In this document: positions 1 to 54,379 of the stretch, piece by piece
Numbering within the stretch: the stretch's first letter is position 1
How the letters are laid out: each line of letters starts with the position of its first letter
Source: Bacteroidota bacterium
Lineage (GTDB): Bacteria > Bacteroidota > Ignavibacteria > SZUA-365
Length of the DNA stretch: 64,000 nt
Direction: 5' to 3'
Assembly (NCBI GenBank): GCA_023432805.1
Contig: JAEYUG010000033.1
Location: 2,654 to 66,653, forward strand
Program-made: the position numbers and the translations under genes
Notes under the pieces: model-generated
Seen by the model: the letters and a program-made list of their open reading frames with translations, nothing else
Database searches by the model: none
Told to the model about the DNA's origin: nothing

Positions 1-2409
<2,409 letters not shown>

Positions 2410-4942: not shown

Positions 4943-6210
4943 ACTTCGAGCTCCTTGAACAGGGTGGCGGTGCTGCGGCGGAAGATTCCGATGCCCGAGA
5001 GCATCGTGCCGACCACCATCGAGAGCACGCCGGGAATGAAGCCGATCACGTAGGTGCGCGGCGCGATCTCGGCGCGGTAGACCGTGGGAAGCATCATCGT
5101 CGTGCTCTTCATCATGCCGCTGAAATCGAGGCCGTACTCCTGCAGGTACCACAGGCAGGCGAGGCCGACGAGCGTGCCGGCAACCGATCCGATCACGCCG
5201 ATGAGCAGGGACTCGAGCACGAGGCTTCCAAACAGGTGCCGCGCATCCTCGCCGAGCGCGAGCCGCACGCCGAACTCGGCATGGCGACGCAGTCCTCCCA
5301 GCAATCCCGTGTTCCAGAGAATGACCGACATGATGAGAATGAAGATGGCGGTGAGGATGGAATCGAGACTCTCCATGTAGTCGATGAGTCCGGCGAGCTG
5401 CTGCTGATCCTTGAGCGGAAGCATCACGGGCGCGAATGCGTCGGTCGTGTCGGTGCGTGCGTTGAATGCGGCGGCGAGCTGTGCGGCACGCGGGTGATCG
5501 TACATGCTGCCGGCGAAATAGCCGAGCACCTCGCTCGACGCGCCCTGCATGTCGAGCGCGTCCTGCGCGTCGGCAAGGTCGATGATCACACCGCCGCGGT
5601 CGAGCGCCGTTGCACCGAAGCGCACCGTGCCCGCCACACGGCACTGCCAGAAGGCCATGGACCCGTACATCGTGCTGGAGAACAGCGTGAGGTCGTCACC
5701 GGGCCGGACGCCGAGCTGTGTTGCGAACTCCTCGCTGAGCAGTGCCTCACCGCGGGCAGCGGGCAGACGGCCGCGCACGATGGAACGGGCGAGCGCCAGA
5801 CGCCGGGGTTCGGTGGTACGGGCGCCGAGCAGGTCGATGGCGAGGCCGGCGAAGGGACCCTGCCGCTTCGTCTCGCCGTGCTCGTCGGCCACGTCGGCGA
5901 GTCCGCCGAAGCGGATGCGCCGCACCCACTCCATGTCGGGATGCTCGCGCGCAAGCTCGCGCAGCAGCGCGTCGGTCTCGAGCAATGCGAGATCGTTCGG
6001 CAGCTGAGCCTCGTTTTCTTCGTAGGCACGCGTGACCACGCGCACATGTCCCGTGCTGAAGCGCGCGCTGAGATCGACCATGTCGCCGAAGATCCCGTCG
6101 ATCCATCCGCTGGCCGCAACGGTCAGGAAGACGCCGATGCCGACGATGACGAGGGGAAACATGCTGCGCGTGCGGTCGCGCAAGACGCCGAGCAGAAGGA
6201 AGCGGATCAT
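4939..6210 (-). CDS. ABC transporter permease, FtsX/MacB/LolE family
   Basis: MIRFLLLGVLRDRTRSMFPLVIVGIGVFLTVAASG... then large periplasmic domain plus C-terminal 3-TM FtsX region; ATGA overlaps on both sides. Confidence 0.85.
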   Translation of the reverse strand: MIRFLLLGVLRDRTRSMFPLVIVGIGVFLTVAASGWIDGIFGDMVDLSARFSTGHVRVVTRAYEENEAQLPNDLALLETDALLRELAREHPDMEWVRRIRFGGLADVADEHGETKRQGPFAGLAIDLLGARTTEPRRLALARSIVRGRLPAARGEALLSEEFATQLGVRPGDDLTLFSSTMYGSMAFWQCRVAGTVRFGATALDRGGVIIDLADAQDALDMQGASSEVLGYFAGSMYDHPRAAQLAAAFNARTDTTDAFAPVMLPLKDQQQLAGLIDYMESLDSILTAIFILIMSVILWNTGLLGGLRRHAEFGVRLALGEDARHLFGSLVLESLLIGVIGSVAGTLVGLACLWYLQEYGLDFSGMMKSTTMMLPTVYRAEIAPRTYVIGFIPGVLSMVVGTMLSGIGIFRRSTATLFKELEV

Positions 6211-7391
6211 CGCATCCTCCCGCGCAAGGCGTCGGTGGGCTGCATGTGCGCGATGCGTCGCGCGGGCAGGAAGCTGACGATGGTCGCAGCGACGAAGATG
6301 AGCACGATCGTGGCGCCGACGAGTCCGGCACTGAAGGCGGGATAGATGCGCGCCGCGCCGGCGATGCCCGTGTTCTCGAAGGATCCCCCCACCCCGAATC
6401 CCACGGTGGCGAGATACCACAGCAGCGGCACGCCGTAGATTGCGCCCGCGAACGCGGCGAGAATACTGTGCGCTCCCCCTTCGAGCGTGAAGAGACCGAC
6501 CACCTGCCAGCGCGTCATCCCGAGGGCGACGTAGGTGCCGATTTCGCGCTGGCGGCGGAAGATGGAGAGCACCTGCGTGTCGAAGAGGGCGAGCAGGGCC
6601 ATGAGCAGGAGGATCGAGTACATCACTGCGGATCCGATGCGCTTGGCCTCGATGATGTCGGTCAGATCCTGCAGCAGCATGTCGGCAGTCTTGAAATGCC
6701 ATCCCGCCGGCGCGGCGGCGAGTTGCACAGCGGCATCGGGTGCGGCGACGACCAGCGTGGCCTCGTCCTCGAGACCGGTCATGGCCCGCAGGCGTTCGAG
6801 CGGCACCCAGATCTGTCCGACATCCACACTCGGCACATCCACATCGAAGATGCCGGCGACCAGCGCCTCGCAGGCGTCGAAGGCGCCGTTGCGGTCGCGC
6901 CACCGCACGAGCACGACGTCGTGCAGCGCGAGTCCCGCGCTCCCGGCCATGCGCCGGCCGATCAGTACGGGCAGCGCGTCGCCTTCGCACGCGGTGTCGA
7001 GCACGGCGGTGGGGAGCGCCACGACGCGCTGGGCGGGATCGATGCCGCGCAGCAGTGCGGACTGCATGCGTCCGCCGGGATAGATCGTGCCCTGCACGAT
7101 GAGCACGGGTGAGAGGCTTCCGCTGGTGGCACCGCGCGCCAGCGCGGGCGGGAGCGGGGCGTGCGCATGGACGAGGGTGAAGGGATCGTACGGGTCGTAG
7201 GATTCCTGCCAGTACTGTCCCGCACCGACTTCCCAGGCGATGGTCTCGCGGCGGGCCTGCTGATTCCATCCCTCGATCAGGCCGTTGTAGAAGATGATCA
7301 CGACGTAGCTGAACGAGAGTGCGAGCACGTTGAGCCAGGTGCGGAGTCCCGCGCCGACGAGATTCGCGAAGGCGACTCTAAGGGCGAGCAT
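6207..7391 (-). CDS. ABC transporter permease, FtsX/MacB/LolC family
   Basis: MLALRVAFANLVGAGLRTWLNVLALSFSYVVIIFYNGLIEG...; FtsX C-terminal TM bundle. Confidence 0.85.
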   Translation of the reverse strand: MLALRVAFANLVGAGLRTWLNVLALSFSYVVIIFYNGLIEGWNQQARRETIAWEVGAGQYWQESYDPYDPFTLVHAHAPLPPALARGATSGSLSPVLIVQGTIYPGGRMQSALLRGIDPAQRVVALPTAVLDTACEGDALPVLIGRRMAGSAGLALHDVVLVRWRDRNGAFDACEALVAGIFDVDVPSVDVGQIWVPLERLRAMTGLEDEATLVVAAPDAAVQLAAAPAGWHFKTADMLLQDLTDIIEAKRIGSAVMYSILLLMALLALFDTQVLSIFRRQREIGTYVALGMTRWQVVGLFTLEGGAHSILAAFAGAIYGVPLLWYLATVGFGVGGSFENTGIAGAARIYPAFSAGLVGATIVLIFVAATIVSFLPARRIAHMQPTDALRGRMR

Positions 7392-8159: not shown

Positions 8160-9353
8160 TCAGTGGTAGATCGCTGCGAGCAGCATGAACCCCGATCCCC
8201 CGAACGCTGAACCGCCCCAGGCCGCAAGGTCGCGCGCGGGATTCCAGAACAGAAGCAGATGCGCGCTCCACACATCCTCCGTGCGCGCGAGCGAGGCGAG
8301 CCGGTACCAGTTTCCGCTGCGCCAGTCGTGGAACACCATCACCGATGCGCCGTGCAGCGCGTCGAGGGGATACGTGGCGGCCAGCGCCGTCAGCTGCGCA
8401 GTCTCTGCGAGCGCACCGAGCCGCGCGCCACCCTGTCCGACCGCATGCTCGCAGGTGATGCCGAGTCCGTTGCCCCACGCGAACGTGTAGTCGGCGCCGA
8501 GCGTGGCGAGGGACGTCCACGTCGCGTCCCCGCGCGCACCGCGGTGCATGAGCACCCCCTCGCCCCAGATTCCGATGCCGACATCCCATTTGCCGTCGAG
8601 GCCGATCCTGTTTTCATGGAGGGAGGATGCCCCGGCCGTGGAGATCTGTCCCAGCACAGAGGACTGCCCCTGCGGGGCGGATGCCCCGGCCGCGCTGCCC
8701 GCCGCCACTCCGTACGCTCGCCGGTGATGGAACGTCACTGCCGCCTCCCCCGCTCCCATCGGAAGCTGCACGCGCCCGCCGAATTCCGGCGTGTGCCGCA
8801 CGGTCGCATCGGCGTCGATTCCCCTGGGCTCATCGTTGCCATAGAGCGCCCAGAGCCAGAGACTCGCGTTGTTCTGCATCGTCCCGCGTGCGAGGATCCC
8901 GCGCACACCGGAGGCGACAGCGAGAGGATCGCGGGGATCCACGCGGTCGAACCACATCAAGGGACGCACAAGAAGCGCCGATCCGAAGTTCAGCTTCTGC
9001 AGTCCCGCACGCAGCTCCATCCGTTCGGATGCGATGCGCAGCGACAGCCGATGCAGCTCGGCGTTGGCATCGGGAGCCTCTCCGCGCCGCAGTTCGACGC
9101 GCAGCTGCAACGCAGCGTCGGCATCGAGTGCAACATCGTCGGTGAGCGCATATCCGACCGACAGCTCCGGAATCGAGCGGAGTCCCGCATGAGAAACCAG
9201 CACCCTGTCGAACGAGCCGCCCAGCCATCCCGAGAACTCATGGCGTGCATCCACTGTCTGCGCCGTCGCCTGCGGACCTGTCGCACCACACAGTCCCACA
9301 GCGCACAGCGCCCCCGTGAGAAACGACGCAACCCAGCGCAGCCATGTGCGCAC
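8160..9353 (-). CDS. Hypothetical secreted, possibly outer-membrane beta-rich protein; first gene of the ABC operon
   Basis: Signal-peptide-like RTWLRWVASFLTGALCAVGLCGATGPQATAQ; alternating hydrophobic pattern; start uncertain (GTG at 9353 proposed; the ORF extends to 9431). Confidence 0.45.
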   Translation of the reverse strand: MRTWLRWVASFLTGALCAVGLCGATGPQATAQTVDARHEFSGWLGGSFDRVLVSHAGLRSIPELSVGYALTDDVALDADAALQLRVELRRGEAPDANAELHRLSLRIASERMELRAGLQKLNFGSALLVRPLMWFDRVDPRDPLAVASGVRGILARGTMQNNASLWLWALYGNDEPRGIDADATVRHTPEFGGRVQLPMGAGEAAVTFHHRRAYGVAAGSAAGASAPQGQSSVLGQISTAGASSLHENRIGLDGKWDVGIGIWGEGVLMHRGARGDATWTSLATLGADYTFAWGNGLGITCEHAVGQGGARLGALAETAQLTALAATYPLDALHGASVMVFHDWRSGNWYRLASLARTEDVWSAHLLLFWNPARDLAAWGGSAFGGSGFMLLAAIYH

Positions 9354-9633
9354 TGTGTCCGGGAGCAGCGTTCCCGCTCCTTCTTTCGCAGTGCCACACA
9401 CACCATCTGACCGTTCGATCATGATCACCATGCCTGAAATGTCGCGAACAGGTTCGGTATCCCGTCCATCCGCAACTTACAATAGTCATGTGTCAGGTGC
9501 ATTCGAAAAGCCGGGCCCGCAGCGCAGCGCCCGCATGCGATCACACGCAACTCGCGGCATGCCTCGCAGGTGCCTGCGCGGTCTCTGTGTGGCGTCGTGT
9601 ACAGTTTCACAACGATACGTAGATTGCACAGGC

Positions 9634-10803
9634 ATGCCGCCGGAACTCTCCATATCGTTCACTGATGTCGTGCACGCACTGCTCGTGCTGTGTGCGGTGG
9701 CTTCCTCTGGGGGATTCGTTGCCACGGGTGTGGGACGTGCCCGCGCCCGGCGGCGGGAGGCGGAGTTCGTGCGGGCATCCGCCGCGCATGAAACCCCGGA
9801 TGTGATCCCCCCTCTCGTCTCGATCATCATCGCGGCGCATGACGAAGTGCAACGGATCCCGGCACTGATCGCGGCACTGCAGGCGCAGACGTATCCGCGG
9901 GAGCGGATGGACATCGTGGTGGCGGACGACCGATCCACCGACGGCACGGCGCAGGTCGTCGCGCACCTGGATCCCGCGGTGCGGATCGTGCGCATCGACG
10001 TGACGCCGGCAGGGGTCAGTCCGAAGAAGCACGCGCTGCATACGGCAATCGAGGCGGCGACAGCGGAGTTCCTGCTGTTCACGGATGCCGACTGCAGGCC
10101 GGGACCCGACTGGGTGCGCGCGATGGTGCGACGTCTCGCGGGCGGCGCGGAGGTGGTGGTCGGACTCTCTCCGGTCGATGGGATCCGCCACGGCGCGCAG
10201 CTGTTGCGGGGGTATGAAAGCGCGCGGGCATCGATGCTGATGGTGGCCGCGATCGGCTGGGAGGCGCCGTACATGAGTCTGGGTCGCAACTGGGGCTATC
10301 TGCGGCGGTCGTATGAGGCGGTGGGTGGACTTCCTTCCCTCGGTCATCATCTGGGCGGGGACGATGATCTGCTCTTGCAGCGCTACGTCTCAGCAGGAGC
10401 GCACATCGCTTCATGCACCGAGCGCGATGCCGCGTGTCCGACGGATCCTCCCGCCGGCTGGGGCGCGCTCCTGCGCATGCGGGTGCGGCATCTGCACGTG
10501 GCGGCGGCATACAGGGGGCGCGGCGCGCTGCTGCTCGCGGGCTTCGAACTCGCCGAGTTCATCACGATCTTCATCGCGCCCGCATGGTTCGTGGTCACGA
10601 CCGGCATGCATCCCCTGCTCGTCGCGGTGGTACTCGTCGCCAAGCTCTCCTACGACACGCGCTTCCTGCTGCCGGCCATGCGCGGGTTGCCGGGGCGCGG
10701 TGGCATCTGCACGCGACTCATCATGATCCTTCTCGAGCCGCTGCATGTCGCGTCCACAGTACTGTTCTCCGTTCTAGCACCTCTGCTGAGATCCCGATGG
10801 TAG
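9634..10803 (+). CDS. Family-2 glycosyltransferase with N-terminal TM and C-terminal TM helices (polyprenyl-phosphate sugar synthase-like)
   Basis: SIIIAAHDE...VVADDRSTDGT...FTDADC motifs of GT-A fold; hydrophobic C-terminal segments. Confidence 0.85.
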   Translation: MPPELSISFTDVVHALLVLCAVASSGGFVATGVGRARARRREAEFVRASAAHETPDVIPPLVSIIIAAHDEVQRIPALIAALQAQTYPRERMDIVVADDRSTDGTAQVVAHLDPAVRIVRIDVTPAGVSPKKHALHTAIEAATAEFLLFTDADCRPGPDWVRAMVRRLAGGAEVVVGLSPVDGIRHGAQLLRGYESARASMLMVAAIGWEAPYMSLGRNWGYLRRSYEAVGGLPSLGHHLGGDDDLLLQRYVSAGAHIASCTERDAACPTDPPAGWGALLRMRVRHLHVAAAYRGRGALLLAGFELAEFITIFIAPAWFVVTTGMHPLLVAVVLVAKLSYDTRFLLPAMRGLPGRGGICTRLIMILLEPLHVASTVLFSVLAPLLRSRW

Positions 10804-13061
10804 ACACGCATTCACGCTCACGCAGCGCTGTGAAACGCAGCGCTGTGAAACACAGCGCCGGGCAACGCAACACCGGGCAACGCAGCGCCGGGCAACACAG
10901 CACAGCGTACGATGCATTGGCACTCGTGCTCATTCTCTGGCATGCCGTCCTGCTCGTACTCTCCCTTGTCGGTGGTGAGACGCTGCGACTCTGGGGCATC
11001 GACGCAGCCGGCATGATCTGGACGCATCCCGTCTCCCTCGTGCTGACCGGCGCCGCACTCGCGTACGTCCTCACCCTGCGCACGCGTCCCATGCACCGCA
11101 TGCTCGCTCACCCCGCCACACCTGCGGTGCTGCTCGGTCTCGTCGTCACCGGACTGGCTGTCATCGCCCTGCTGCAGCTCGGTCGCGGCGGGGTGCCGCC
11201 CCTGCTCGGGGATGGCGCGCTCTACCGCAGCGAGGTCCTTCGTCTCGGTCTGATTCCCGACCACGTGCCGATCTTCCTCAAGCCATCAGCGATGCTCACG
11301 GGCCCGATCCTTCTAACGCTCGTGCAGCTGACCGGAACGGCACATCCAGCAGCACCCTTCCTGCTGCTCGGACTGATCGCGCTCGTGCTCGTCGTCGGGC
11401 GCATCCTTCTTCTCGCACGTCGCCACGGTGCCGCGGGCGTGCTGCCGTTCGTGGCAGCGCTTCTGCTCACGCCGGCCTGGCTGCTGCTCTGCGGAAGCAT
11501 CGAACTCTACGCACTCCCGCTCGCCGCGGTGATCTGGCTGCTTGCGGAATTGATAACCGCCGTGCAGCATGATACTGCACGCATGACACCGATCATCATC
11601 GCCACCATTGTCGCGCTTGCAACCTCGCTCTCCGCGATCGCGCTGCTTCCCCTCAGTACATGCGTGCTCGCGTACCTCTGGTGCGTGCGCAAGGGACACG
11701 ACTGCAGCCTGCGCGCAGCGGTGCTGATCGCCATCACCGCCTCAGCTGTCGTGGCCGTTGCGGTCGTGTTCCGCGACGTGCTCGGTCTCGGCGCCTACCT
11801 GCTCCCGCCCTCCGCTGCACGGTATGTGCACGACGGTGTCGACTACGGCATCGTCCAGTACTCCATCCTTCACCCGGCGCATCTGGCGGATGCGGGCAAC
11901 ATGCTGCTGCTGGTCGGCGGCGCGTGGCTTCCCCTCGCGGGGGCGGTGCTGCTCGTGCGCCGCTGGCGCGAGGCGCTGCCCGTGCAGGTGCTGGGTTTCA
12001 TGCTGGTCGCGGCCGCGTCCTCCCTCCTCACACTTCTGTGTGCGAACGCGGCGCTCGGCATGGAGCGGGACTGGGATCTGCTCGTCGTGCCCCTGCTCAT
12101 GCTGCCGGCCTCGGCCGCCGCGATGCTCGCATCGCTCGCGCGCAGGGACGCCGCCGCGGTGCTGCGCATCCTGCCGCTGCTCGTGCTGCTCGGTGGGGCA
12201 ACGACGCATGCGTGGATCGCGGTGCAGACCGACGTGCCCACCGCGACCGACAGGCTGCTGCGCGCGATCGACCGCGACGCGCCGCTGCTGCGTGCCGATT
12301 TCACCTATTACGGCTACGAGAATCTGCGCAAGCAATTCCGCAGCGACGGCGACGACGCGGGCGTGCACGCGATGTACATGCGCATGCTCGCCACCGGGTA
12401 TCGCGCGAGCGACACGTATGAAAAGCTGCTCGCGCTGCAGTACAACACACGCAATGTGCCCGCGGCATGGATCGACGAGGTGGGCTCCTCGCTGCGCACA
12501 CGCATCGCGCGGCCGTCCCGTCGTGGCACGCACGGATTTCTCGATCGCAGGGAGCTCGGAGAACTCGCGGCACAACTGGTGGCGCAGACGGCGCGCCTCG
12601 GGGATGTGACGCGTGCGGCCATGTGGGCGGATCGGTTCGCCGAGGACTTCGCAGAGGGATGGAAGGAGGAGGCATTCGCGCGCGTGTGGCTTTCGCAGGG
12701 TGCGACCCCGCAGCAGACGGCGGAAGCCGTCTTCGCAAGCATCGACTCGACGGCACGCAGCAGCAACACGCTCTTCATGGCGGCGGTGATGTTGAAGGAC
12801 GCAGGCGCGTACGACACCGCGGCGGCATATCTCGCATGGGCGATCAAGCGGAATCCCGTCGAACACCCGATCTACTATCTGCACCGGGCGCGGCTGCTGC
12901 TGCATGTGGGACGCGTGGACGAGGGACATGCCGTCCTGCTCGCCTGTCTTTCACGGTGTCACGATCCCGCGCGTGCCGAGGAAGCGCGCGCACTGCTCGC
13001 ACAATCGGGGTATATTGGTCGTTCCCCCAAACCATTTTCGAAAGGTCGCACGTCGTGCTGA
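10797..13061 (+). CDS. Large polytopic membrane protein with C-terminal soluble TPR-like domain (GT-C / DUF2723-like glycosyltransferase candidate)
   Basis: 754 aa; >10 predicted TM segments then helical repeat region (LAWAIKRNPVEHPIYYLHRARLLLHVGRVDEGHAVL); start overlaps the GT2 stop (ATGGTAG). Confidence 0.65.
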   Translation: MVDTHSRSRSAVKRSAVKHSAGQRNTGQRSAGQHSTAYDALALVLILWHAVLLVLSLVGGETLRLWGIDAAGMIWTHPVSLVLTGAALAYVLTLRTRPMHRMLAHPATPAVLLGLVVTGLAVIALLQLGRGGVPPLLGDGALYRSEVLRLGLIPDHVPIFLKPSAMLTGPILLTLVQLTGTAHPAAPFLLLGLIALVLVVGRILLLARRHGAAGVLPFVAALLLTPAWLLLCGSIELYALPLAAVIWLLAELITAVQHDTARMTPIIIATIVALATSLSAIALLPLSTCVLAYLWCVRKGHDCSLRAAVLIAITASAVVAVAVVFRDVLGLGAYLLPPSAARYVHDGVDYGIVQYSILHPAHLADAGNMLLLVGGAWLPLAGAVLLVRRWREALPVQVLGFMLVAAASSLLTLLCANAALGMERDWDLLVVPLLMLPASAAAMLASLARRDAAAVLRILPLLVLLGGATTHAWIAVQTDVPTATDRLLRAIDRDAPLLRADFTYYGYENLRKQFRSDGDDAGVHAMYMRMLATGYRASDTYEKLLALQYNTRNVPAAWIDEVGSSLRTRIARPSRRGTHGFLDRRELGELAAQLVAQTARLGDVTRAAMWADRFAEDFAEGWKEEAFARVWLSQGATPQQTAEAVFASIDSTARSSNTLFMAAVMLKDAGAYDTAAAYLAWAIKRNPVEHPIYYLHRARLLLHVGRVDEGHAVLLACLSRCHDPARAEEARALLAQSGYIGRSPKPFSKGRTSC
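10821..10895 (+). repeat. In-frame 15-bp imperfect tandem repeat x5 (cgcagcgctgtgaaa / cacagcgccgggcaa) encoding RSAVK/RSAGQ/RNTGQ pentapeptides at the 5' end of the membrane-protein gene
   Basis: Seen directly in sequence. Confidence 0.8.
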
Positions 13062-13903
13062 CGGTATCGGATTCTGATTCCCTGCGTTCGAGCCTCCCTG
13101 CGGGTGCGGCGCATCCCGACCGGGTGCGCTGGCAGCGCGCGGTGGATACAGCGACAGAGCGCGGGATGCTCGTGGCCGATCTGCTCGGGTCTGTCCTGTC
13201 GCTCGCTGGGACGCGGGTCCTGGACTGCGGATGCGGGGCAGGTGGCACCTCGGCTGCACTGCGGATGCATGGTGCGCACGTCGTCGCCTTCGACGTGCAT
13301 GCGGCGCGGCTCGCAATGACGCGCGCGCGCGACAGCGCGCTCGTGCTCTGCGGAGGTGATGCGGCGGCGCTTCCCTTCGCACGCGGCGTGTTCGACGCGG
13401 TCGTGCTGCAGGATGTGCTCGAGCATGTCGAGGATCCCGCCCACGTATTGGCCGAATGTGCACGTGTCGTGCGAGATGGCGGCGTCGTGTACCTGTCCAC
13501 GCCCAACCGGTGGTCTCCGGCGACGGTGGCTTCCGACCCGCACTTCGCGTTGCCGCTCGTGGGTGTGCTGCCACGCGCGGGACTCCGCCGGGTGCTCCGC
13601 CGGCTGCGTCCCACCGAAGCCGCGCGGCGCGATCTTCCGCAACTCCTTTCCTTTTCCTCGCTCGAGAGGCTGGCCCGGGAGGCCGGCTTCGCGCTGGCCT
13701 TGTGCAATCGCGCAGTGGCGCACATGCTGCAGGTGCATCCCGCGCGGGTGGTGTGGAGCGCAGCGCATCTGGCGCTCGTCGGCGTGCTGCATCGGCTGGG
13801 CGCGATGCGGCTGGTGGAGCTGGCGGCAAGCGATGGACGCGGCATGCGTACACGCTGGCTGGCGCCGGCCTGGTACTGCCTGCTGCATCGGGAGACGCGA
13901 TGA
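13055..13903 (+). CDS. Class I SAM-dependent methyltransferase
   Basis: VLDCGCGAGG motif I, FDAVVLQDVLEHV; GTG start at 13055 overlaps the previous stop (GTGCTGA); ATG at MLVADLLG is the alternative. Confidence 0.75.
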   Translation: MLTVSDSDSLRSSLPAGAAHPDRVRWQRAVDTATERGMLVADLLGSVLSLAGTRVLDCGCGAGGTSAALRMHGAHVVAFDVHAARLAMTRARDSALVLCGGDAAALPFARGVFDAVVLQDVLEHVEDPAHVLAECARVVRDGGVVYLSTPNRWSPATVASDPHFALPLVGVLPRAGLRRVLRRLRPTEAARRDLPQLLSFSSLERLAREAGFALALCNRAVAHMLQVHPARVVWSAAHLALVGVLHRLGAMRLVELAASDGRGMRTRWLAPAWYCLLHRETR

Positions 13904-14916
13904 TGCGCGCGCGCACGCTCTGGAATCTCGCGCGCACGGCAACGCTGCGGCGTGCGGTGAACGTCGTGCGGATCACGGCGGCGCAGCTGGTGTCGGCGAC
14001 GCTGCATCGTCCCGTGGTGTGGGGAATGCCGTGGACGCTGACAATCGAGCCCACGAACCGCTGCAATCTCGCGTGTCCCGAATGTCCCAGCGGAAACGGT
14101 TCGCTCGTGCGTCCCCTGGGTTCGATGACTCTCGAGCGCTTTCGGCGTCTCGTCGACGAGGTCTCCCCGCACGTCTTCTATCTCCAGCTGTACTTCCAGG
14201 GAGAGCCGTTCATCAACAAGTCCCTCGCGGAAATGGTCGCCCACGCGCATCGCCGCCGGATGTACACTGCGATCAGCACGAACGCGCATTTTCTGCGTGC
14301 CGAGACCGCGCGCGCACTGCTGGATGCGGGACTCGACCGCCTGATCGTGTCGGTCGACGGCACGAGCGAGGAATCCTATCAGACCTATCGCGTTGGCGGC
14401 ACTTTTGCTGCCGTGCTGCGCGGACTCGATGCCCTTGCGGCCGAACGGCGTGTGCATGCACGGGGGAAGCGTCTGGAGCTTGTCGTGCAGTTTCTCGTCA
14501 CCAGGCAGAACGAGCACGAGATCGACTCCGTGCGGAAGCTGGCCGCGGCCTATGATGCGTCGCTCGCACTGAAGACAATGCAGGTGTATTCGGTGGAAAG
14601 TGCCGAGGCGTTTCTACCTCGGGATGAGAGGTATCGACGGTACCTGGTGCGCGACGGGGAGCTGGTGATGAAAGGACGTATGGCAAACCGCTGTGCGCGG
14701 TTGTGGGATCGAAGTGTCATTACGTGGGACGGCGTGGTCGTGCCCTGCTGTTTCGACAAGAATGCCGAGCATGCGGTGGGATCGCTGGATGATGGCGCAT
14801 TCGAGGAGGTGTGGACGGGCGAAGCGTTGCAGGGGTTTCGTGCGCGCGTGCTGAGCGACCGCCGCGGCGTGCCCATGTGCACCAACTGCACCGAGGGATT
14901 GCGGGTGTACCGATAG
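13900..14916 (+). CDS. Radical SAM enzyme with C-terminal SPASM-type cysteine cluster
   Basis: CNLACPEC (CxxxCxxC) near N-terminus; C-terminal CxxxxxC...CC...CxxC cysteines (VVPCCFDK ... CTNCTEG); ATGA overlap with the methyltransferase. Confidence 0.85.
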   Translation: MMRARTLWNLARTATLRRAVNVVRITAAQLVSATLHRPVVWGMPWTLTIEPTNRCNLACPECPSGNGSLVRPLGSMTLERFRRLVDEVSPHVFYLQLYFQGEPFINKSLAEMVAHAHRRRMYTAISTNAHFLRAETARALLDAGLDRLIVSVDGTSEESYQTYRVGGTFAAVLRGLDALAAERRVHARGKRLELVVQFLVTRQNEHEIDSVRKLAAAYDASLALKTMQVYSVESAEAFLPRDERYRRYLVRDGELVMKGRMANRCARLWDRSVITWDGVVVPCCFDKNAEHAVGSLDDGAFEEVWTGEALQGFRARVLSDRRGVPMCTNCTEGLRVYR

Positions 14917-14922
14917 ATCACC

Positions 14923-14954
14923 GGGAGGACGGACGCCCTCGTCCGTCATTGACG
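14923..14954. repeat. GC-rich palindromic intergenic element (REP-like), copy A: GGGAGGACGGACGCCCTCGTCCGTCATTGACG
   Basis: 8-9 bp stem GGACGGACG/CGTCCGTCC; same core recurs at 5 other loci in this window. Confidence 0.8.
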
Positions 14955-15033: not shown

Positions 15034-15807
15034 ATGTACACATTCGGCATCGACAAGCTGGGCCGCAAGACGCTGCTCTTCCTGCAGGAAGTCGGGCAGG
15101 TGAGTATCATGGTCGCCGGGATGGTGCGCAGTTCGCACCGACTGTTTCGTGACCGCCGGCTGCTTCTCGAGCAGATGCACCACATCGGCGTGGGCTCGCT
15201 GCCTCTCGTGCTGATCATCGGACTGTTCACGGGCATGGTCAGTGCCTGGCAGGCCGCATATCAGTTCAAGGGCATGATCTCGTTCTCGCTGATCGGAGGC
15301 GCTGTAAGCCGCGCGATCTTCATCGAGCTGGGTCCCGTGCTCACCGCCATCGTCATCGCCGGACGCGTGGGCGCCTCGATTGCGGCTGAACTCGGCACCA
15401 TGAAAGTGACCGAACAGATCGACGCGCTCGAAAGCATGGCCATCGATCCCGTGCGGTACCTGGCGCTTCCGCGCGTACTCGGCGCAGTGCTGATGATGCC
15501 GGTCCTGGTGGTGTTCGCCAACTCGATTGCGCTGGGAGGAGCATATCTGGTTTCCAATCTCTTCCTCGACCTGACTCCCCAGGTCTTCTTCGGCAGCGTG
15601 AAGCGGTTCTTCCAGACGAAGGACATCATGGCAGGCATTCTCAAGTCGCTGTTCTTCGGTGGCGTGACCTCGCTGCTGGGCTGCCACATCGGCTTCCGCA
15701 CTTCGGGGGGCGCCGAAGGAGTCGGCAATGCGACGATTCGTGCGTTCGTGCTCTCGGCTGCGTTCATCCTCATCCTCGACTATACCCTCTGGCTGGTGAT
15801 TTTCTGA
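15034..15807 (+). CDS. mlaE: MlaE-family ABC transporter permease (phospholipid/lipid-asymmetry type)
   Basis: 257-aa protein MYTFGIDKLGRKTLLFLQEVGQVSIMVAGM... with the MlaE/YrbE fold signature; no adjacent MlaF/MlaD. Confidence 0.85.
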   Translation: MYTFGIDKLGRKTLLFLQEVGQVSIMVAGMVRSSHRLFRDRRLLLEQMHHIGVGSLPLVLIIGLFTGMVSAWQAAYQFKGMISFSLIGGAVSRAIFIELGPVLTAIVIAGRVGASIAAELGTMKVTEQIDALESMAIDPVRYLALPRVLGAVLMMPVLVVFANSIALGGAYLVSNLFLDLTPQVFFGSVKRFFQTKDIMAGILKSLFFGGVTSLLGCHIGFRTSGGAEGVGNATIRAFVLSAAFILILDYTLWLVIF

Positions 15808-18730: not shown

Positions 18731-19279
18731 TCATCGAAGAATGATCACCATCCGTTGTACGACAGATGCTCCCGAGCGGATCCGGAGCACGTATGATCCT
18801 GGCGAAAGCTCGGGAGCATGCAGTCGGATATGCGAGGGACCTGCAGGAAGCAGCTCGTCTGCGACCGTCAGGATGGTCGTGCCCAGCAGCGTGTGCAAAG
18901 TCACCTGTGTATGGGCTGCTCGTGGATTCATGATCTCGATGGTCGTGCTCCCGCGGGAGGGATTCGGGTACACGCTTCCGATGATGATCGATGCCGGCAC
19001 CGTCACAGCTTCCGCGGAGATGACAGTCGAAGCCGTGTCGCACAACACGCATCCATAGCCGGAATGGAGTATGGTGCCTGCTGAAGCCGCAGAATCCACC
19101 GCACCCTGTCCGGGCACGGATCGGGCAGTCCATGATGCACTTGTACTCACGCCCGCGCCGCTTGCAATCAGATCCGCAATGATGCGGAAGGACGCAGACT
19201 GTTGCGCATGCAATGGGACTGCCGACACGAACAGCATGCAGAGGCATGCAAGCGCAGCCCCCCGTCGTCGGGGTGTCAT
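18731..19279 (-). CDS. Small secreted protein consisting essentially of a signal peptide and a T9SS type-A C-terminal sorting domain
   Basis: Signal peptide [26 protein letters not shown]; C-terminus SVYPNPSRGSTTIEI...GSYVLRIRSGASVVQRMVIIL is a T9SS CTD; 4-nt overlap with the collagen-like gene. Confidence 0.55.
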   Translation of the reverse strand: MTPRRRGAALACLCMLFVSAVPLHAQQSASFRIIADLIASGAGVSTSASWTARSVPGQGAVDSAASAGTILHSGYGCVLCDTASTVISAEAVTVPASIIIGSVYPNPSRGSTTIEIMNPRAAHTQVTLHTLLGTTILTVADELLPAGPSHIRLHAPELSPGSYVLRIRSGASVVQRMVIILR

Positions 19280-21159
19280 CGCGCACCTCGCCATGGTTGC
19301 CGGCTGCCGGACTGCCAGTGCGGGGTCTGCGCGGCAGGGAGCTTCCCCCGGGTGGGGGCGGCCGTGTGGTGTGGACGCGGTACGCGGGCGTCGGGATCCG
19401 CTGCGGAGCCTCGGTCTGAGGCGACGTTGTGTTCCTCCAATCTCACATCTTCATAGCCCCTTCGCTTCGCACTGATCTGGTAGTCGAAGGGGATGGTCGC
19501 GTGACCTCCGCCGAGCTCACGCACGACAAAATGGTCGGGGGCCTTGTGGGCGATGTAGAGTCCTGCACAGTCGCCCCCCGGGGTCAGGATGATCTGTGGG
19601 AGATGCTCGGCATCGATGGTGACGGTTTCGCGGAAGATGGGATCGATCGGTACGATTGCCTCGCCGTCGCGCAGCGTGGCCGTGCCGAAATCGGTATAGC
19701 GCACGTCGGCTGCCTCGACTGCGTACATGCGGCGTGTGCCGTAGGACGTGGTCTTGACGATGTTGTTCTTCGTGCCGGTGAAGAAGAAGTCGCCCATGGG
19801 ATTCAGATGACCGACGAAGCCTCCGGTCGGGGATTTGATGGTGAGTCCCTCGAGCGGTGAGATTTCGAGGATGTTTCCATTTTCGAGGGGGATGCGGATG
19901 CCGGCCCAGTAGGTTTCAAGGCCGGAATGCTCGGAGGTGCCGTCTTCGTGGAAATCGACGAGTTTATTGCCTGCGGCATCGACAATGTGCAGGCTGCGGA
20001 AGTAGCCTTCGCCTGTCATATCGATAGCAGCGACCTTGTTGCCGAGCGTGTCGTAGACGGACACGCCGTCGGAGCCGAGCACGATGCCACCATCGTTGTT
20101 CGGGTTGTACACACCGATCGAAGAACCCCGCAGCCAGCCACCGTGGAGCCAGGTCGTGTCGCGGTAGCCGGTTGCGGGATCGTGATAGGTGTACTGCTCG
20201 AGCAGGCTGTGGCGAGACCCGGTCGTATCGAAACCGATGAGCTCGACGCGTCCTGCAGGATCGGTCAGATCGCCCTTGACGATGTGCAGGCTGCGGAAGT
20301 ATCCCTCTCCCGTCGAATCGATGAACCCGTTGACGGCGAGTCCGTCGGTGATGAGGATCTGGCGTGTAGCCACGCCGTCCTTCGTCAGCACGGTACTCCT
20401 GGACGTTGGCAGGTCGCCACCGACGCTGATGCCGTCGTGGTAGTGCTCCCATCCGATGTGTTCGGAAGAGCCTGTGACGATGAGGGTGTCGACGACGAGG
20501 CGGGAGAGTGTATCGAGCACGATCAGTGTGTCGACCGTGAGTCTGGTGATCGTGTCGGGAACGCCGGCAGGTCCGGCGGGTCCGGCAGGTCCGGCAGGAC
20601 CAGCGGGACCAGCGGGACCAGCGGGACCGGCAGGACCAGCGGGACCAGCGGGACCGGCAGGACCAGCGAGACCGGCAGGACCGGCAGGGCCGGCAGGTCC
20701 CGGAGGCAGGGGGTGTTTGAGCGAATCCGCATACAGCGCGACCATGGCGAGCGGCACGGGCTGCAGCGGGATCGGCGGTTCGAGCACTTCGCCGTTGACG
20801 GTCAGACGCAATGCAGCACGCGTTTGAAAGATCAGTGGATTGAGTGGATTGTTGAGTGTGTCGACGCTTCCGATGGCGTGTTCGAAGAGCCCGTTCGAGA
20901 CCATGAGGTTCGAGACGGTTTCCTCGAACAATATCGGGTTTCCGGGACGCGTCAGATCCACGATGGTGAACCGAACGCTCAACGCGCCATTGTAGCGCGA
21001 ACCATCGGGTTTCGTCAGGCAGCCCTGATAGTGGAAGACGCGCTGAACGGTTGGAGACGGGCGGTCGGCGCTGCGGTCAGGTAGGGACGTCTGCGCGTGA
21101 AGCACGCACGACAACAGCAGGCAGCATGCGGCGCTGCCAATGTATTTCGCAAGGTGCAT
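19276..21159 (-). CDS. Collagen-like triple-helix repeat protein with signal peptide ([10 protein letters not shown]...), C-terminal region of unknown fold
   Basis: [23 protein letters not shown] signal; about 16 uninterrupted Gly-Pro-Ala triplets; the C-terminal ~60 aa are Arg/Pro-rich and look like an out-of-frame tail. Confidence 0.7.
20564..20706. repeat. 9-bp tandem repeat array (ccggcaggt / ccagcggga variants) encoding (GPA)n
   Basis: Seen directly. Confidence 0.9.
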
Positions 21160-21795: not shown

Positions 21796-22557
21796 TCAAT
21801 AACGATCCAGGCGAAAGGACTCGCCCAGATAGATTTTTCTCGCCTCGGCATCTCCGGCAAGTGCCTCGCTCGTACCTTCGAGCAGGATGGTCCCGTCGAA
21901 GAGCAGATAAGCGCGGTCGACGATCGAGAGCGTTTCGTGCACGTTGTGGTCGGTGATGAGCACACCGATGTTGCGCTGCTTGAGTGTGCGCACGATGTTC
22001 ATGATGTCTTCGACGGCGATGGGGTCCACCCCCGCGAAGGGTTCGTCAAGAAGGATGAAGCTGGGATTCACCGCAAGGGCGCGGGCGATCTCGCAGCGGC
22101 GCCGCTCTCCCCCGCTGAGCATGTAGCCCTTGCTCGCACGGATGTGGGTGATGTTGAAATCCTCCATGAGTTCTTCTGCTCGACGTTTTCTGTCTGCGCG
22201 CGCGAGTCCCATGATCTCGAGCACGGCGATGAGGTTCTGTTCGACGGTGAGCTGACGGAAGACCGAGGCCTCCTGCGGGAGGTAGCCGATGCCACGGCGG
22301 GCGCGCTTGTACATCGGCAGTGACGTGATGCGCTGCTCGTCGAGGTAGACATCCCCGGCGCTGGGACGAATCATGCCGGTGATCATGTAGAAGGTGGTGG
22401 TCTTGCCGGCGCCGTTGGGTCCGAGCAGTCCGACGATCTCGCCCTGCTGCACCGACACGCTTGCGCCCTTGACGACGTCGCGCTTGCCGTATCGGCGCCG
22501 TAGGTTCTCAGAGCGGAGGGTGCGGGGTGTGGGGGAATCCATCCTTGAATTTACCAC
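21796..22557 (-). CDS. lptB: LPS export ABC transporter ATP-binding protein LptB
   Basis: LRSENLRRRYGKRDVVKGASVSVQQGEIVGLLGPNGAGKTTTFYMITGMIRP...LSGGERRRCEIARAL. Confidence 0.9.
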   Translation of the reverse strand: MVNSRMDSPTPRTLRSENLRRRYGKRDVVKGASVSVQQGEIVGLLGPNGAGKTTTFYMITGMIRPSAGDVYLDEQRITSLPMYKRARRGIGYLPQEASVFRQLTVEQNLIAVLEIMGLARADRKRRAEELMEDFNITHIRASKGYMLSGGERRRCEIARALAVNPSFILLDEPFAGVDPIAVEDIMNIVRTLKQRNIGVLITDHNVHETLSIVDRAYLLFDGTILLEGTSEALAGDAEARKIYLGESFRLDRY

Positions 22558-22579
22558 CAGGTTGCGTCATCACAAAGAT

Positions 22580-32275: not shown

Positions 32276-33916
32276 TCAGCGCAGCACGATGATGCGCGTG
32301 CGGGCCGAGCCCTGCCGGGTGAGGAGCCGTGCGACGTACATGCCGGCGGGCAGGCGCCCGGGGATCCATTGCACGGTGTGCGTGCCGGCGTCGCGCCATC
32401 CGGCCGACCATGACCATACACGTCGTCCACTGGTATCGTGCACGGCGATGTCGGCAGTGCCGGAGCGCGGCAGCGTGAATGCGAGCAGGGTGCTGGTTCG
32501 CACGGGATTAATGAGGGCCTGCAGCTCCGGCTCCTGCGGCAACGCTGGCGCCGACCCTGCCGACACCGTGCCGTAGTCGAAGGGTTCATCGACCATGTGG
32601 TACTGCGCCTCGCTCTGCCCGTTGTAATCCCGACGGAGGTAGGGGCACAGCAGGGGTGTCCGGGGTTGATCGGAAAGCTGGATGCGCTGTGGGACTCCCC
32701 CGTTCCAGTCGTACAACGGCACCTCGGCGGGATCGAACATGGGGAGGAGTCCGCGCTCATGCGCGATGTGGAAGAGCCCGAAATTCCCGGGTTCGTGCCC
32801 GGCGAGCCATGTGCCGATCACATCGACGAGGAAGGGATTGGTCCCGAACACCAGGATGTTGCTCATGAAATCCTGCGGCGTGTTTCCGGCACCGGGTCCG
32901 TGATTGAACCCGTCGCCATTGCGCCCGTAGATGCCCTCGATGACGTGAAGGCCGGGACGCATGACCGTGTGCGAATCGCAGGTGCGCTGCGCCCAGGTTT
33001 CCATGCCGTAACCGCCGGCAGCGTCGCGTCCCGGGCGATCCCAGCGCGGGATGCCTGCGGCCAGATGGCGTGCATACGCAGCGTCGATGCGCTGTTCGAA
33101 GTCCGTGTGGAAATCGAGGAGCACGCCGGCAGGATGCTTCCGCGTGTTGTCGACGCCTTCGCAAAACCGGACATACGGACTGACAACCGTTCCCTGCAGG
33201 TTCTTCGCGCAGAGGGTCATCCCCATGGAATGCGTTTTGAACTTGGCGACATTCAGCATCCACGTGTCGTCGTCATTGAACGGGGCGAGATATCCGATGC
33301 GTCGGAACACCTCGCCTGACGGCACATCCCGCCAGATCACTTCGGTACCGCTGACCAGGTCTGCGAGCTGCATGTCGTAGATCATCCGTCCGCTCGCGAA
33401 GTCGAACAGATGCATGCCGTGCTTTTGCGCGATGGCGTTCATCTTGACACCGGTCACGAGATACTCGCCGGCGCAATAGCCGTTCGCCATCCAGTTGCCC
33501 TCGCGCGCGAACATGTTGTAGCCGGGGAACCCGGTCTCGCGCATGCCTTCGAGCAGACCGTCGAGCACATCGAGATCGGTGACGATGCCCATGCCCGCAG
33601 GGGTATTGCCCGTCCCCGAGGTGCAGGTCAGATTCGGTTTCACCGTGATGGCGTTCGTGAAGGGAACGCCCTGCGTCTCGCTCGCGGTGAAGCACTCCCG
33701 CGCAAACGCAAGTCCCTCGGCCCGCTTCGCCGCCTCGTCGAGCTTGTCGGCGACAGCGGTTCGGCGTATGAAGACCGCTTCGGGATGTGCAGTGAGAAAG
33801 GGATGCGGAAGGATGTATGCGGGTGCTGCGGATCGGTGCGCGCGAAGCATCGATGGAAACAGCAGCGAGCCCGCAACGGCGGCGGGCACACCGGTCAGGA
33901 AGTCACGTCTGCGCAT
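32276..33916 (-). CDS. Tat-signal DUF362-like secreted protein with T9SS C-terminal sorting domain
   Basis: MRRRDFLTG twin-arginine motif; ITVKPNLTCTSGTG (DUF362-like); C-terminal AVHDTSGRRVW...PAGMYVARLLTRQGSARTRIIVLR CTD. Confidence 0.7.
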   Translation of the reverse strand: MRRRDFLTGVPAAVAGSLLFPSMLRAHRSAAPAYILPHPFLTAHPEAVFIRRTAVADKLDEAAKRAEGLAFARECFTASETQGVPFTNAITVKPNLTCTSGTGNTPAGMGIVTDLDVLDGLLEGMRETGFPGYNMFAREGNWMANGYCAGEYLVTGVKMNAIAQKHGMHLFDFASGRMIYDMQLADLVSGTEVIWRDVPSGEVFRRIGYLAPFNDDDTWMLNVAKFKTHSMGMTLCAKNLQGTVVSPYVRFCEGVDNTRKHPAGVLLDFHTDFEQRIDAAYARHLAAGIPRWDRPGRDAAGGYGMETWAQRTCDSHTVMRPGLHVIEGIYGRNGDGFNHGPGAGNTPQDFMSNILVFGTNPFLVDVIGTWLAGHEPGNFGLFHIAHERGLLPMFDPAEVPLYDWNGGVPQRIQLSDQPRTPLLCPYLRRDYNGQSEAQYHMVDEPFDYGTVSAGSAPALPQEPELQALINPVRTSTLLAFTLPRSGTADIAVHDTSGRRVWSWSAGWRDAGTHTVQWIPGRLPAGMYVARLLTRQGSARTRIIVLR

Positions 33917-34072
33917 GCACCTTCTCCAGCGAGATCGAAATTGCAGGATTGTGGATGCAAGCTACGGCACATGCAGGACAATTGCATCCGAAACGCTGAA
34001 ACTCCTTCCGGCGGCCTCCCATCAAAGCGGCGCCCCTATGCGGAAGTCCCCGGGTGGAACGATGCGAGGAAC

Positions 34073-34450: not shown

Positions 34451-34510
34451 GGAAGACTCGGGACTATGAAACAGGCGGGTCGCCCCGCCTGTTTCGTTGC
34501 ATCGATGCTG

Positions 34511-36562: not shown

Positions 36563-36694
36563 GCAGGTCTCCTGATGGTATGAACGATGGATGGATGTAC
36601 GGGTGTTGGTGGCGTATTCCCTCACGGGGAGGGAATCGCAAAAAATAGAACGACAGGTCCGAAAATACAACTCGGAATCGGGATGCCGCAGGTC

Positions 36695-54092: not shown

Positions 54093-54379
54093 TGCTCGTT
54101 TCCTCTCGGGTGCTGAAGGGACATTCGTATGGAGATGGCAGACGCTGTACAAACTAGCCACCACGTCGATGCCGTGCAACGTTGAACGACCGAACCCCGC
54201 AGCCGCATGATTTATTCCGCCGCACCCTTTACATCCTTCACATCGCAGTGTATTTTAAGACAGTACTTATCCCAAATCAAGATAGACCGGTCGAAAGACC
54301 CTGACACACTCGGGCGCAGACGCGCGAGCGATAGCATGGGCCACAGGCACCGGATGGTTGTACCATTCTGGAGGATTCC

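Follow-up and report, generated by a model that had tools for sequence, protein, structure and literature searches.

The stretch of DNA considered here (the window) comprises 64,000 nucleotides of contig JAEYUG010000033.1, from a Bacteroidota bacterium of the Ignavibacteria (lineage SZUA-365; assembly GCA_023432805.1). Its forward strand carries an operon of four genes, which encode a membrane glycosyltransferase of family GT2 (gene 1), a polytopic membrane protein with a C-terminal tetratricopeptide repeat (TPR) domain (gene 2), a class I S-adenosylmethionine (SAM) methyltransferase (gene 3), and a radical-SAM enzyme (gene 4). The G+C content of the window is ~63% and spurious open reading frames (ORFs) are plentiful; these four + strand genes are nonetheless real. 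An earlier reading of the letters, made with no database searches (hereafter the original prediction), had described the genes as overlapping at ATGGTAG, GTGCTGA, and ATGA, and the three junctions are present as described (Table 1). Independent gene calls on a public contig of identical sequence (ENA ERZ27268833 k141_17521, 128 kb) reproduce the four lengths and the overlaps, the GTG start of gene 3 also agrees with public annotation, and the identical sequence occurs in Logan SRR13347295 as well.

The four-gene unit is bounded on both sides. Upstream lies a divergent LolA-like/FtsX/FtsX/ABC cluster together with the gene for a 423-aa protein, ending at position 9431; downstream, a G+C-rich hairpin is followed by MlaE (15034-15807) and then by a ClpC-like ATPase. 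The transcription unit may end at this hairpin. It lacks a T tract, and it was missed by a consensus scan for terminators, in which a T run is obligatory. A scan for sigma-70 promoters returned no match, as expected for this group of organisms.

Table 1. Positions of the operon genes, their domains and junctions, and other features of the window (numbered from the first letter of the window).
Feature	Position	Strand	Remarks
Gene 1, membrane GT2	9634-10803	+	389 aa, translation uninterrupted
Gene 2, polytopic TPR protein	10797-13061	+	754 aa, translation uninterrupted
Gene 2, N-terminal part, ~13-transmembrane domain with predicted GT-C fold	10797-12236	+	residues 1-480
Gene 2, C-terminal part, helical-repeat (TPR) domain, predicted periplasmic	12237-13061	+	residues 481-754
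Gene 3, class I SAM methyltransferase	13055-13903	+	282 aa, translation uninterrupted
Gene 4, radical-SAM enzyme	13900-14916	+	338 aa, translation uninterrupted
Stop/start overlap, genes 1/2, ATGgTAG	10797-10803	+	ATG 10797-10799, TAG 10801-10803; read in sequence
Stop/start overlap, genes 2/3, GTGcTGA	13055-13061	+	GTG 13055-13057, TGA 13059-13061; read in sequence
Stop/start overlap, genes 3/4, ATGA	13900-13903	+	ATG 13900-13902, TGA 13901-13903; read in sequence
Perfect 8-bp G+C-rich hairpin, GACGGACG-CCCT-CGTCCGTC	14928-14947	+	by sequence inspection; 12 nt past gene 4 stop
DUF362/PqqD-like/OPT/PqqC-like gene cluster	32276-37570	-	separate from the operon

Proteins encoded by the operon

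Family calls were made against Pfam gathering scores and NCBIfam curated cut-offs, and transmembrane (TM) segments were counted from hydropathy and charge, which gives four for gene 1, ~13 for gene 2, and none for genes 3 and 4. Gene 1 is a member of GT2, matching Glycos_transf_2 above the gathering score (PF00535; 5.7e-20, 72.3 bits versus 23.3), and it also matches Glyco_tranf_2_3 (PF13641; 41.9 versus 27) and GT21 (PF13506; 38.1 versus 21.7). An N-terminal TM segment and the positively charged stretch after it precede a cytoplasmic GT-A domain, and three further TM segments lie at the C terminus (hydropathy marks residues 4-34, 297-346, and 362-382). The protein carries the motifs DDRSTD, TDADC, GGDDD, and RMRVRH; the first three, comprising the DxD and catalytic-acid motifs, are invariant in 10 orthologues drawn from four arrangement types. 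Across all arrangements the orthologues share a common architecture and ~30 invariant alignment columns (including DDxSxD, KKxA, TDADC, and GDD), and their fourth motif, of the D,D,D,(Q/R)xxR(W/H) type, reads QQRKRW in Ignavibacteria orthologues and RMRVRH or RQKMRH in the window clade.

Every NCBIfam model scores below its cut-off for gene 1. The best are MftF (71.3 bits; cut-off 280), EpsD (62), HpnB (59.9; cut-off 379), and CruG (47.5); HpnI aligns over residues 16-255 with 29.2 bits (cut-off 310), and PgaC, the best NCBIfam match of the Ignavibacteria GT2 orthologue (90 bits), reaches 36 bits (cut-off 422). The original prediction had placed this protein among the polyprenyl-phosphate-sugar synthases, but the corresponding models score far lower: 16.4 bits for ArnC (PRK10714; cut-off 529), 15.4 for dolichyl-phosphate-hexose transferase, and 15.8 for PpgS. 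The nearest solved structure is PcManGT (6yv7; 5.6e-13), and no GtrB or DPMS structure occurs among the Protein Data Bank (PDB) matches at E ≤ 1e-3. PcManGT is described as a transmembrane GT2 whose fold is a minimal version of the cellulose-synthase-like kind (Gandini 2020, as cited in PMC12595478). We therefore rejected a GT2 of the Dpm1/ArnC/GtrB type on the model scores, the nearest structure, the N-terminal TM segment, and the RxxxRH/QQRKRW motif. Judged from sequence, gene 1 is best assigned to the cellulose-synthase-like or GT21-like membrane GT2s, a class that includes lipid glycosyltransferases as well as small synthases.

For gene 2, the expectation of a 754-aa protein with more than 10 TM segments and a C-terminal TPR domain is borne out. 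Pfam detects only a sub-threshold TPR_16 in gene 2 itself, and among 48 diverse relatives TPR families alone are detected, all within the C-terminal third; TPR models and helical-repeat structure together identify the C-terminal part as a TPR domain. The TM domain matches no Pfam or NCBIfam family, at E ≤ 0.1 for gene 2 and at E ≤ 0.01 for the 48 relatives, and is not in the curated GT-C clan (CL0111). A word-indexed search had suggested that gene 2 is an orphan (6 matches with the single sequence, 28 with a profile), an idea that was dropped when an exhaustive HMMER profile search returned 3138 representative clusters at E ≤ 1e-3 (1954 at 1e-10), mostly of 650-770 aa and matching over their full length. 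In the family alignment, G138, E236, Y238, Y355, D365, and D425-W426-D427 are invariant, and W66, G67, D139, G140, R149, R424, and R486 nearly so, giving the conserved acidic motifs LGDG (after predicted TM3), GxxExY, AHLxDxxN, and RDWD. A 13-TM model fits the positive-inside rule, with 22 Lys and Arg among 98 cytoplasmic loop residues versus 8 among 135 periplasmic ones, and on this model all of the invariant motifs and the TPR domain are predicted to face the periplasm. The near-invariant W66, G67, D139, G140, R149, and R424 are likewise placed in loops on that side.

An AlphaFold model of gene 2 built from 6 sequences had a pLDDT (predicted local distance difference test) of 53 in the TM domain and was excluded from the fold search, whereas the model built from 48 sequences reached a pLDDT of 91.2 and a pTM (predicted template-modelling score) of 0.89. 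In a Foldseek search with the latter, ArnT was the first membrane match, and the TM domain resembles GT-C enzymes and no known exopolysaccharide co-polymerase. The GT-C assignment of the original prediction accordingly stands in part: the predicted structure supports a GT-C fold for the polytopic domain, but the 48 relatives carry no GT-C sequence signature, and by sequence the protein appears to lie outside the known GT-C families. A TM domain combined with TPRs is the architecture of the TMTC proteins within the GT-C/PMT clan (PMC7801869), and gene 2 matches that of TMTC1-4 and of bacterial PMT_2+TPR proteins. It differs from them in having no detectable sequence relationship, with no Pfam match and a probability of 2.9% when hhalign compares its TM domain with three PMT_2+TPR proteins, which is a weak test given the few target sequences. 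The signature DD/DE motif that follows TM1 in TMTC and PMT proteins is likewise not conserved; in the corresponding loop of the gene 2 family, W66-G67 is near-invariant and position 69 varies between D and N.

The 5' end of gene 2 contains a 15-nt tandem repeat (window 10820-10903; 5.5 copies, 85% matches) that encodes a cytoplasmic tail rich in Arg, Lys, Ser, Gly, and Gln, SAVKRSAVKHSAGQRNTGQRSAGQ. This N-terminal extension is variable, since P0002 lacks it and P0003 has a different one. A paralogue of gene 2 (P0004; 690 aa, 31% identity) was found in the same sample (locus L006, 2758-7345; ENA ERZ27268833 k141_326155), on a contig that may belong to the same genome, its G+C content being 0.65 and its tetranucleotide profile correlating with that of the window at 0.97. 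Its neighbours are an IF-2B family gene and a gene for an 832-aa protein without a Pfam match, and no GT2, methyltransferase, or radical-SAM gene is adjacent.

Gene 3 was correctly anticipated to be a class I SAM methyltransferase: it matches Methyltransf_11 (PF08241; 2.7e-21, 76.5 bits versus 21.2) and has the SAM-binding motif VLDCGCGAGG at residues 54-63. The protein is soluble and has a C-terminal extension of ~130 aa. Its best NCBIfam model is the DVU_1556 family (NF045667; 86.3 bits, below the cut-off of 155; 67-75 bits for its orthologues), on which a literature search found nothing; the models that follow, also below cut-off, are UbiG/MenG-type small-molecule methyltransferases.

Gene 4 belongs to the radical-SAM superfamily (Radical_SAM, PF04055; 7.5e-17, 62.4 bits versus 29.5), and the predicted CxxxCxxC motif is found as C55-x3-C59-x2-C62, invariant in a 12-sequence alignment. 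It is soluble, only ~45 residues precede the CxxxCxxC motif, and Pfam detects in it neither PqqD nor a recognition element (RRE) for peptides made on ribosomes and modified after translation (RiPPs). The hidden Markov model (HMM) search that the original prediction had proposed for this enzyme assigned it to no named family, as all NCBIfam models remain far below their cut-offs (TIGR04311, 116 versus 400; TIGR04317, 100 versus 380). The C-terminal cysteines had been read as a SPASM-like cluster, and Pfam does report SPASM (PF13186; 1.8e-13, 51 bits). SPASM domains are defined by seven Cys that hold two auxiliary [4Fe-4S] clusters. In the same 12-sequence alignment, five Cys after the core of gene 4 are invariant (C265, C283, C284, C327, and C330), and a PDB profile search with the gene 4 family ranked BtrN first (3.8e-18), in an alignment that covers the core as well as the twitch stretch. 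Residues 259-331 align end to end with BtrN 164-237, placing C265, C283, C327, and C330 opposite C169, C187, C232, and C235 of BtrN (4m7s numbering). BtrN is the archetypal twitch enzyme, which has one auxiliary cluster with four Cys ligands and oxidizes an aminocyclitol (PMC9012708, PMC10337720). A full SPASM domain was rejected because only five post-core Cys are conserved and the stretch matches the one-cluster twitch of BtrN; by alignment, the C-terminal domain is a putative BtrN-type twitch with a single auxiliary cluster. There is thus little reason to expect a peptide or cofactor maturase, which a Pfam SPASM match by itself does not imply.

Other PDB matches of the gene 4 family are the cytosylglucuronate decarboxylase BlsE (1e-10) and DesII, both of which modify sugars, as well as PqqE, anSME, and GDGT-MAS. 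By profile, BtrN (2-deoxy-scyllo-inosamine dehydrogenase), BlsE, and DesII are the closest solved relatives. Identity between BtrN and gene 4 is nevertheless low, gene 4 is 70-90 residues longer, and it stands beside a membrane GT2 rather than in an aminoglycoside or nucleoside antibiotic cluster. The family is large, with 4870 database matches below 1e-10 (the top 120 mostly full-length, at 46-65% identity), and occurs in at least 597 species-level genomes, mainly of Bacteroidota, Ignavibacteria, and Calditrichota. Cultured carriers include Lewinella cohaerens, Fulvivirga, and Splendidivirga.

Gene order in related genomes

Partner genes were sought at the loci around homologues (numbered here with the prefix L), comprising the 80 best genome loci for the radical-SAM family and 73 metagenome loci for the gene 2 family; at high-GC loci, tblastn coordinates and public gene calls were used. 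The order GT2, membrane protein, methyltransferase, radical-SAM enzyme is confined to the window clade (L001-L005), in which the radical-SAM enzymes are 92-93% and the membrane proteins 51-56% identical. It recurs in two lineages besides that of the window, and because it does so with membrane proteins only 51-56% identical, the order is more than chance. The next relatives (L010, L011, L013, L017, and L034; radical-SAM identity 50-64%) have GT2, methyltransferase, and radical-SAM genes without the membrane protein, often with MlaE and ClpC downstream. Orthologues of gene 3 adjoin the radical-SAM gene in these five loci and in L003 and L004, and the 4-nt overlap between the two genes is kept in L003, L004, L010, and L011, with tblastn coordinates in L013 consistent with it. 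Conservation of the neighbourhood, proposed as a check in the original prediction, is thus real for the four-gene order in the closest relatives and is otherwise a narrow, lineage-specific state, the membrane protein being missing from the next relatives.

A further arrangement occurs in ~20 Ignavibacteria loci, where the radical-SAM gene, a gene for an LPG_synthase_TM protein (PF03706; 4e-21), and the GT2 gene follow one another with overlapping stops and starts and without a methyltransferase. In the Calditrichota locus L089 the order is GT2, LPG_synthase_TM, radical-SAM. A literature search for LPG_synthase_TM together with radical SAM found nothing. The linkage of the GT2 and radical-SAM genes outlasts these changes of gene order, in loci whose G+C content spans 0.33 to 0.64, and because it persists through rearrangement across that range, the two genes are likely to be functionally tied. 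Evolutionarily, the GT2 and radical-SAM genes form the core of the system, to which individual clades have added the methyltransferase and the GT-C/TPR protein; the gene for the latter was inserted recently, between those for the GT2 and the methyltransferase.

A conserved partner for the membrane/TPR family was also sought in its 73 metagenome loci, and none stood out. In five of them (cluster 3 of that set), a protein of ~600 aa is encoded directly upstream of the gene 2 relative. The three that were tested, all on the same strand as that relative, are CelA-like GT2s (L156 2779-4566, L148 4074-5864, and L135 1864-3780) scoring 112-139 bits with the CelA model, below its cut-off. These loci hint that a partnership between a synthase-type GT2 and a GT-C/TPR protein may recur in other lineages. 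A literature search for a Bacteroidetes O-oligosaccharyltransferase with TPRs found nothing relevant.

Two further observations concern the radical-SAM loci. L089 (1740-6350) holds two copies of the family, a divergent one upstream and another downstream of the GT2-LPG_synthase_TM pair. In most of the Ignavibacteria loci with the LPG_synthase_TM arrangement (cluster 3, 17 loci), BshC, the bacillithiol enzyme that adds cysteine (PF10079; 4e-112), lies divergent from the radical-SAM gene, within L014-L033 at about 5000-6900 (for example L020 5026-6654, - strand). BshC was set aside as a functional partner: AroA, a ~196-aa protein (presumably, from its sequence, a TrmH-type methyltransferase), and other unrelated genes are conserved together with it, which makes inheritance of synteny within a single order the more likely cause of its adjacency.

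A proposed pathway and its rivals

The reading that we favor, tentatively and with somewhat less than even confidence, is that the operon specifies a cell-envelope glycoconjugate pathway. Its substrate would be a sugar linked to a membrane lipid, and it would unite the logic of the three-stage Arn and Gtr systems with an unusual step of radical tailoring. In those systems a GT2, a flippase, and a GT-C enzyme act in turn. Building on the domain identities, fold, topology trend, and linkage described above, the substrates, order of steps, and chemistry would be as follows. The GT2, whose GT-A domain is cytoplasmic, would place a sugar derived from a nucleotide sugar onto a membrane lipid, for which polyprenyl phosphate or another lipid could serve as acceptor. 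The soluble radical-SAM enzyme, with a predicted BtrN-like, fully Cys-ligated single auxiliary [4Fe-4S] cluster, could then abstract a hydrogen from the sugar, leading to oxidation or rearrangement (e.g., a hydroxyl-to-keto conversion as in BtrN, or a ring contraction as in HpnJ and Cds), and the translationally coupled methyltransferase would methylate the product. The tailored lipid-linked sugar would next reach the outer leaflet, a step for which Ignavibacteria and Calditrichota have a candidate in the flippase-like LPG_synthase_TM protein encoded between the radical-SAM and GT2 genes. In the window lineage only, the protein with the predicted GT-C fold may finally pass the sugar to a periplasmic acceptor, which its periplasmic TPR domain would select.

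The likeness to Arn (ArnC-ArnD-ArnE/F-ArnT) and Gtr (GtrB-GtrA-GtrC) lies in the pairing of a membrane GT2 with a periplasm-facing protein of predicted GT-C fold and, for Arn, in the cytoplasmic tailoring of a lipid-linked sugar before flipping (ArnD), as proposed here. In the Ignavibacteria version the flippase position is filled by LPG_synthase_TM, which is of the MprF type and not GtrA or ArnE/F. The operon differs from both systems in that gene 1 is unlike ArnC and GtrB in sequence and architecture, gene 2 matches no ArnT, PMT_2, or GtrC model, and neither system has radical-SAM and methyltransferase tailoring. A glycosyltransferase followed by a radical-SAM enzyme that remodels the sugar has precedent on lipid head groups, in HpnI and HpnJ of the HpnI-HpnK-HpnJ route to bacteriohopanetetrol cyclitol ether and in Cds (PMC13459092). 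The resemblance extends to the weak full-length match of gene 1 to HpnI and its match to HpnB, but the operon scores far below the cut-offs of these models (and of HpnH; 34.3 versus 225), no hopanoid or tetraether genes lie near it, and its methyltransferase and GT-C/TPR protein have no counterpart there. Gene 4, a small twitch enzyme that reaches the cut-off of no named NCBIfam model, also belongs to a different radical-SAM type from HpnJ and Cds.

Several observations weigh against the Arn/Gtr-like pathway. Every function-specific HMM falls below its cut-off for the operon proteins. The GT2 is not of the classical polyprenyl-phosphate-sugar type, and its product may be an end-product glycolipid or oligosaccharide rather than a donor for the GT-C-fold protein. 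The GT-C membership of gene 2 rests on predicted structure, the profile comparison with PMT_2 having given the low probability reported above, and the gene is coupled by overlap in the window only, standing 8 to 230 nt from its neighbors in L003 and L004. Among the 73 metagenome loci of the gene 2 family, a GT2 gene lies within two genes in 7, and a gene of this radical-SAM family or of the methyltransferase in none. The radical-SAM gene, for its part, occurs alone and in variable contexts in ~55 of the 80 best genome loci, mostly of Bacteroidia, so that a GT2 next to it may not be required for its function.

The strongest rival, which we regard as unlikely though by no means far-fetched, keeps the first steps, and the one point on which it departs from the pathway above is use of the product by the GT-C-fold protein. 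The GT2 would glycosylate a bulk membrane lipid, the radical-SAM enzyme would remodel the sugar (e.g., by oxidizing it or contracting its ring to a cyclitol), and the methyltransferase would cap it, yielding a final outer-leaflet lipid in the manner of HpnI/HpnJ or calditol synthase, with the GT-C/TPR gene a lineage-specific passenger or one with a separate role. The conserved core without that gene, the flippase-like partner in Ignavibacteria, and the likeness of gene 1 to lipid-acting GT2 and GT21 enzymes (the Pfam GT21 match and sub-threshold HpnB, CruG, and HpnI) are all consistent with such an end product, as is the precedent of a glycosyltransferase and radical-SAM enzyme on lipid head groups (PMC13459092). 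An MlaE lipid-transport permease is also encoded after the radical-SAM gene in the window, L003, L011, L013, and L017, although this adjacency could be inherited synteny, as ClpC and other unrelated genes are conserved there too. The HpnI score, an order of magnitude short of its cut-off, argues the other way, and HpnJ is of a different, B12-domain radical-SAM type. Furthermore, the GT-C-fold gene is coupled on both sides in the window and has been kept in the operon in three lineages, and for these reasons it likely has a role in the same pathway there.

Less probable still is synthesis of an exopolysaccharide or oligosaccharide, in which the GT2 would be a small processive synthase resembling cellulose synthase, PgaC, or NodC, the TPR protein a periplasmic scaffold or co-polymerase (by the logic of BcsC, PgaA, and PelB), and the methyltransferase and radical-SAM enzyme modifiers of the precursor. 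Synthase-dependent systems typically include TPR proteins. The D,D,D,(Q/R)xxR(W/H) signature, with QQRKRW in Ignavibacteria, would suit a synthase, as would the PgaC match of the Ignavibacteria orthologue and the CelA-like GT2s upstream of gene 2 relatives in the three tested of the five cluster 3 loci; the best solved relative of gene 1 has a minimal fold of the cellulose-synthase-like kind (PMC12595478). The synthase models, PgaC included, nonetheless score far below cut-off for gene 1, the window clade has RxxxRH and not QxxRW, and four TM segments with no partner porin or PilZ-type domain make a channel doubtful. The TM domain of gene 2 fits GT-C enzymes and no known co-polymerase, and a cytoplasmic radical-SAM enzyme or methyltransferase cannot act on a secreted polymer.

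A RiPP or peptide-derived cofactor akin to mycofactocin, whose peptide, encoded elsewhere, would be matured by the radical-SAM enzyme and decorated by the GT2 and methyltransferase in the roles of MftF and MftM, is very improbable: no precursor ORF was found by a small-ORF search in or beside the operon, in keeping with the original prediction, the ~45 residues before CxxxCxxC are too short for an RRE, no PqqD match occurs in gene 4, the single BtrN-type auxiliary cluster is not the two-cluster SPASM of MftC and PqqE, the GT2 is integral to the membrane, and conservation of the gene across at least 597 species is unlike that of RiPP maturases. The original prediction had not recognized the combination as a described pathway; an analogue does exist, as MftF (a GT2), MftM (a methyltransferase), and MftC (a radical-SAM/SPASM enzyme) bring together the same three enzyme classes, MftF is the top NCBIfam model of gene 1, MftM (33.2 bits) and MftC (72.3 bits) also match, and Pfam calls SPASM. 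The locus is not a mycofactocin locus, however: these scores are 3- to 6-fold below the cut-offs (200 bits for MftM and 265 for MftC), and MftA, MftB, MftD, MftE, and an RRE are lacking. A PqqD-like gene does occur in the window (34073-34510), ~19 kb away on the other strand, but it stands in an operon of its own with OPT, DUF362, and PqqC-like genes; a PqqD-like gene lies near the radical-SAM family in one of 92 loci (L010, at 3.3 kb), and neither PqqD nor an RRE was found near it in the other 91.

If the Arn/Gtr-like pathway with radical tailoring is correct in its wider form, the FCB-group bacteria would possess a new route of envelope glycosylation, in which a twitch radical-SAM enzyme remodels a lipid-linked sugar and a new GT-C family takes part; we consider this broader proposition doubtful. 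The remodeling could be ring contraction, C-H oxidation, or epimerization, and in some lineages the GT-C family (~3000 representative clusters, dissimilar in sequence to the known GT-C families) would deliver the sugar to periplasmic or outer-membrane targets chosen by the TPR domain. Both a GT-C family new at the CAZy level and a further radical-SAM reaction on lipid-linked sugars would thereby be added to those known. The parts belong to known superfamilies, and GT2 and GT-C enzymes are already known to be paired. In the curated libraries and the literature found, by contrast, we saw no description of a widespread twitch radical-SAM family tied to a membrane GT2, of the GT-C-fold/TPR family, for which there is no sequence model, or of the two combined with a methyltransferase in a coupled operon. 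To our knowledge, radical-SAM chemistry on lipid-linked sugars is known in few cases (HpnJ and Cds), none of which has been reconstituted, and a further, tractable case would be offered by a twitch enzyme that is small, soluble, widely conserved, and linked genetically to a membrane GT2. The large gene 2 family is missing from current family libraries, and giving it a name would improve the annotation of thousands of hypothetical membrane proteins; in Ignavibacteria, Bacteroidota, and related organisms it could be a pointer to as yet unrecognized glycosylation of proteins or lipids.

Other genes of the window

The gene cluster on the - strand that contains the PqqD-like gene (Table 1) encodes, in order, a DUF362 Fe-S protein (561 aa), the PqqD-like protein (145 aa; PF05402, 3e-11), an OPT oligopeptide transporter (727 aa), and a PqqC/TENA/haem-oxygenase-like iron redox enzyme (291 aa), with no radical-SAM gene of its own nearby. 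It could be a module for a peptide-derived metabolite or for uptake. The PqqD-OPT pair also occurs in L010, a locus of an Ignavibacteria metagenome-assembled genome (GCA_016720835.1), with which the downstream SpoIIE/GAF-MFS-PqqD-OPT genes of the window are syntenic. This synteny, together with sorting domains of the type IX secretion system near the operon, assigns the source organism to FCB bacteria related to Ignavibacteria.

A 256-aa ABC ATPase encoded on the opposite strand (21796-22566), 6 kb from MlaE, could be an MlaF partner, and a lipid-trafficking link between MlaE and the operon is possible. The 423-aa protein upstream of the operon (8160-9431, - strand), which has no Pfam match, heads the divergent ABC/LolA-like cluster; it also stands beside the operon in L004 (79% identity) and is absent from the other arrangements. 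At the edge of the window (1-2409, + strand) lies a 5'-truncated, KatG-like catalase-peroxidase (PF00141, two stretches, 1e-73). Two likely surface proteins related to the type IX secretion system (T9SS) are also encoded: a 627-aa protein with collagen-like repeats beside a Por_Secre_tail protein (19276-21159, - strand), and a 1970-aa SdrD_B/DUF11 adhesin-like protein with a Por_Secre_tail of its own (54335-60247, + strand).

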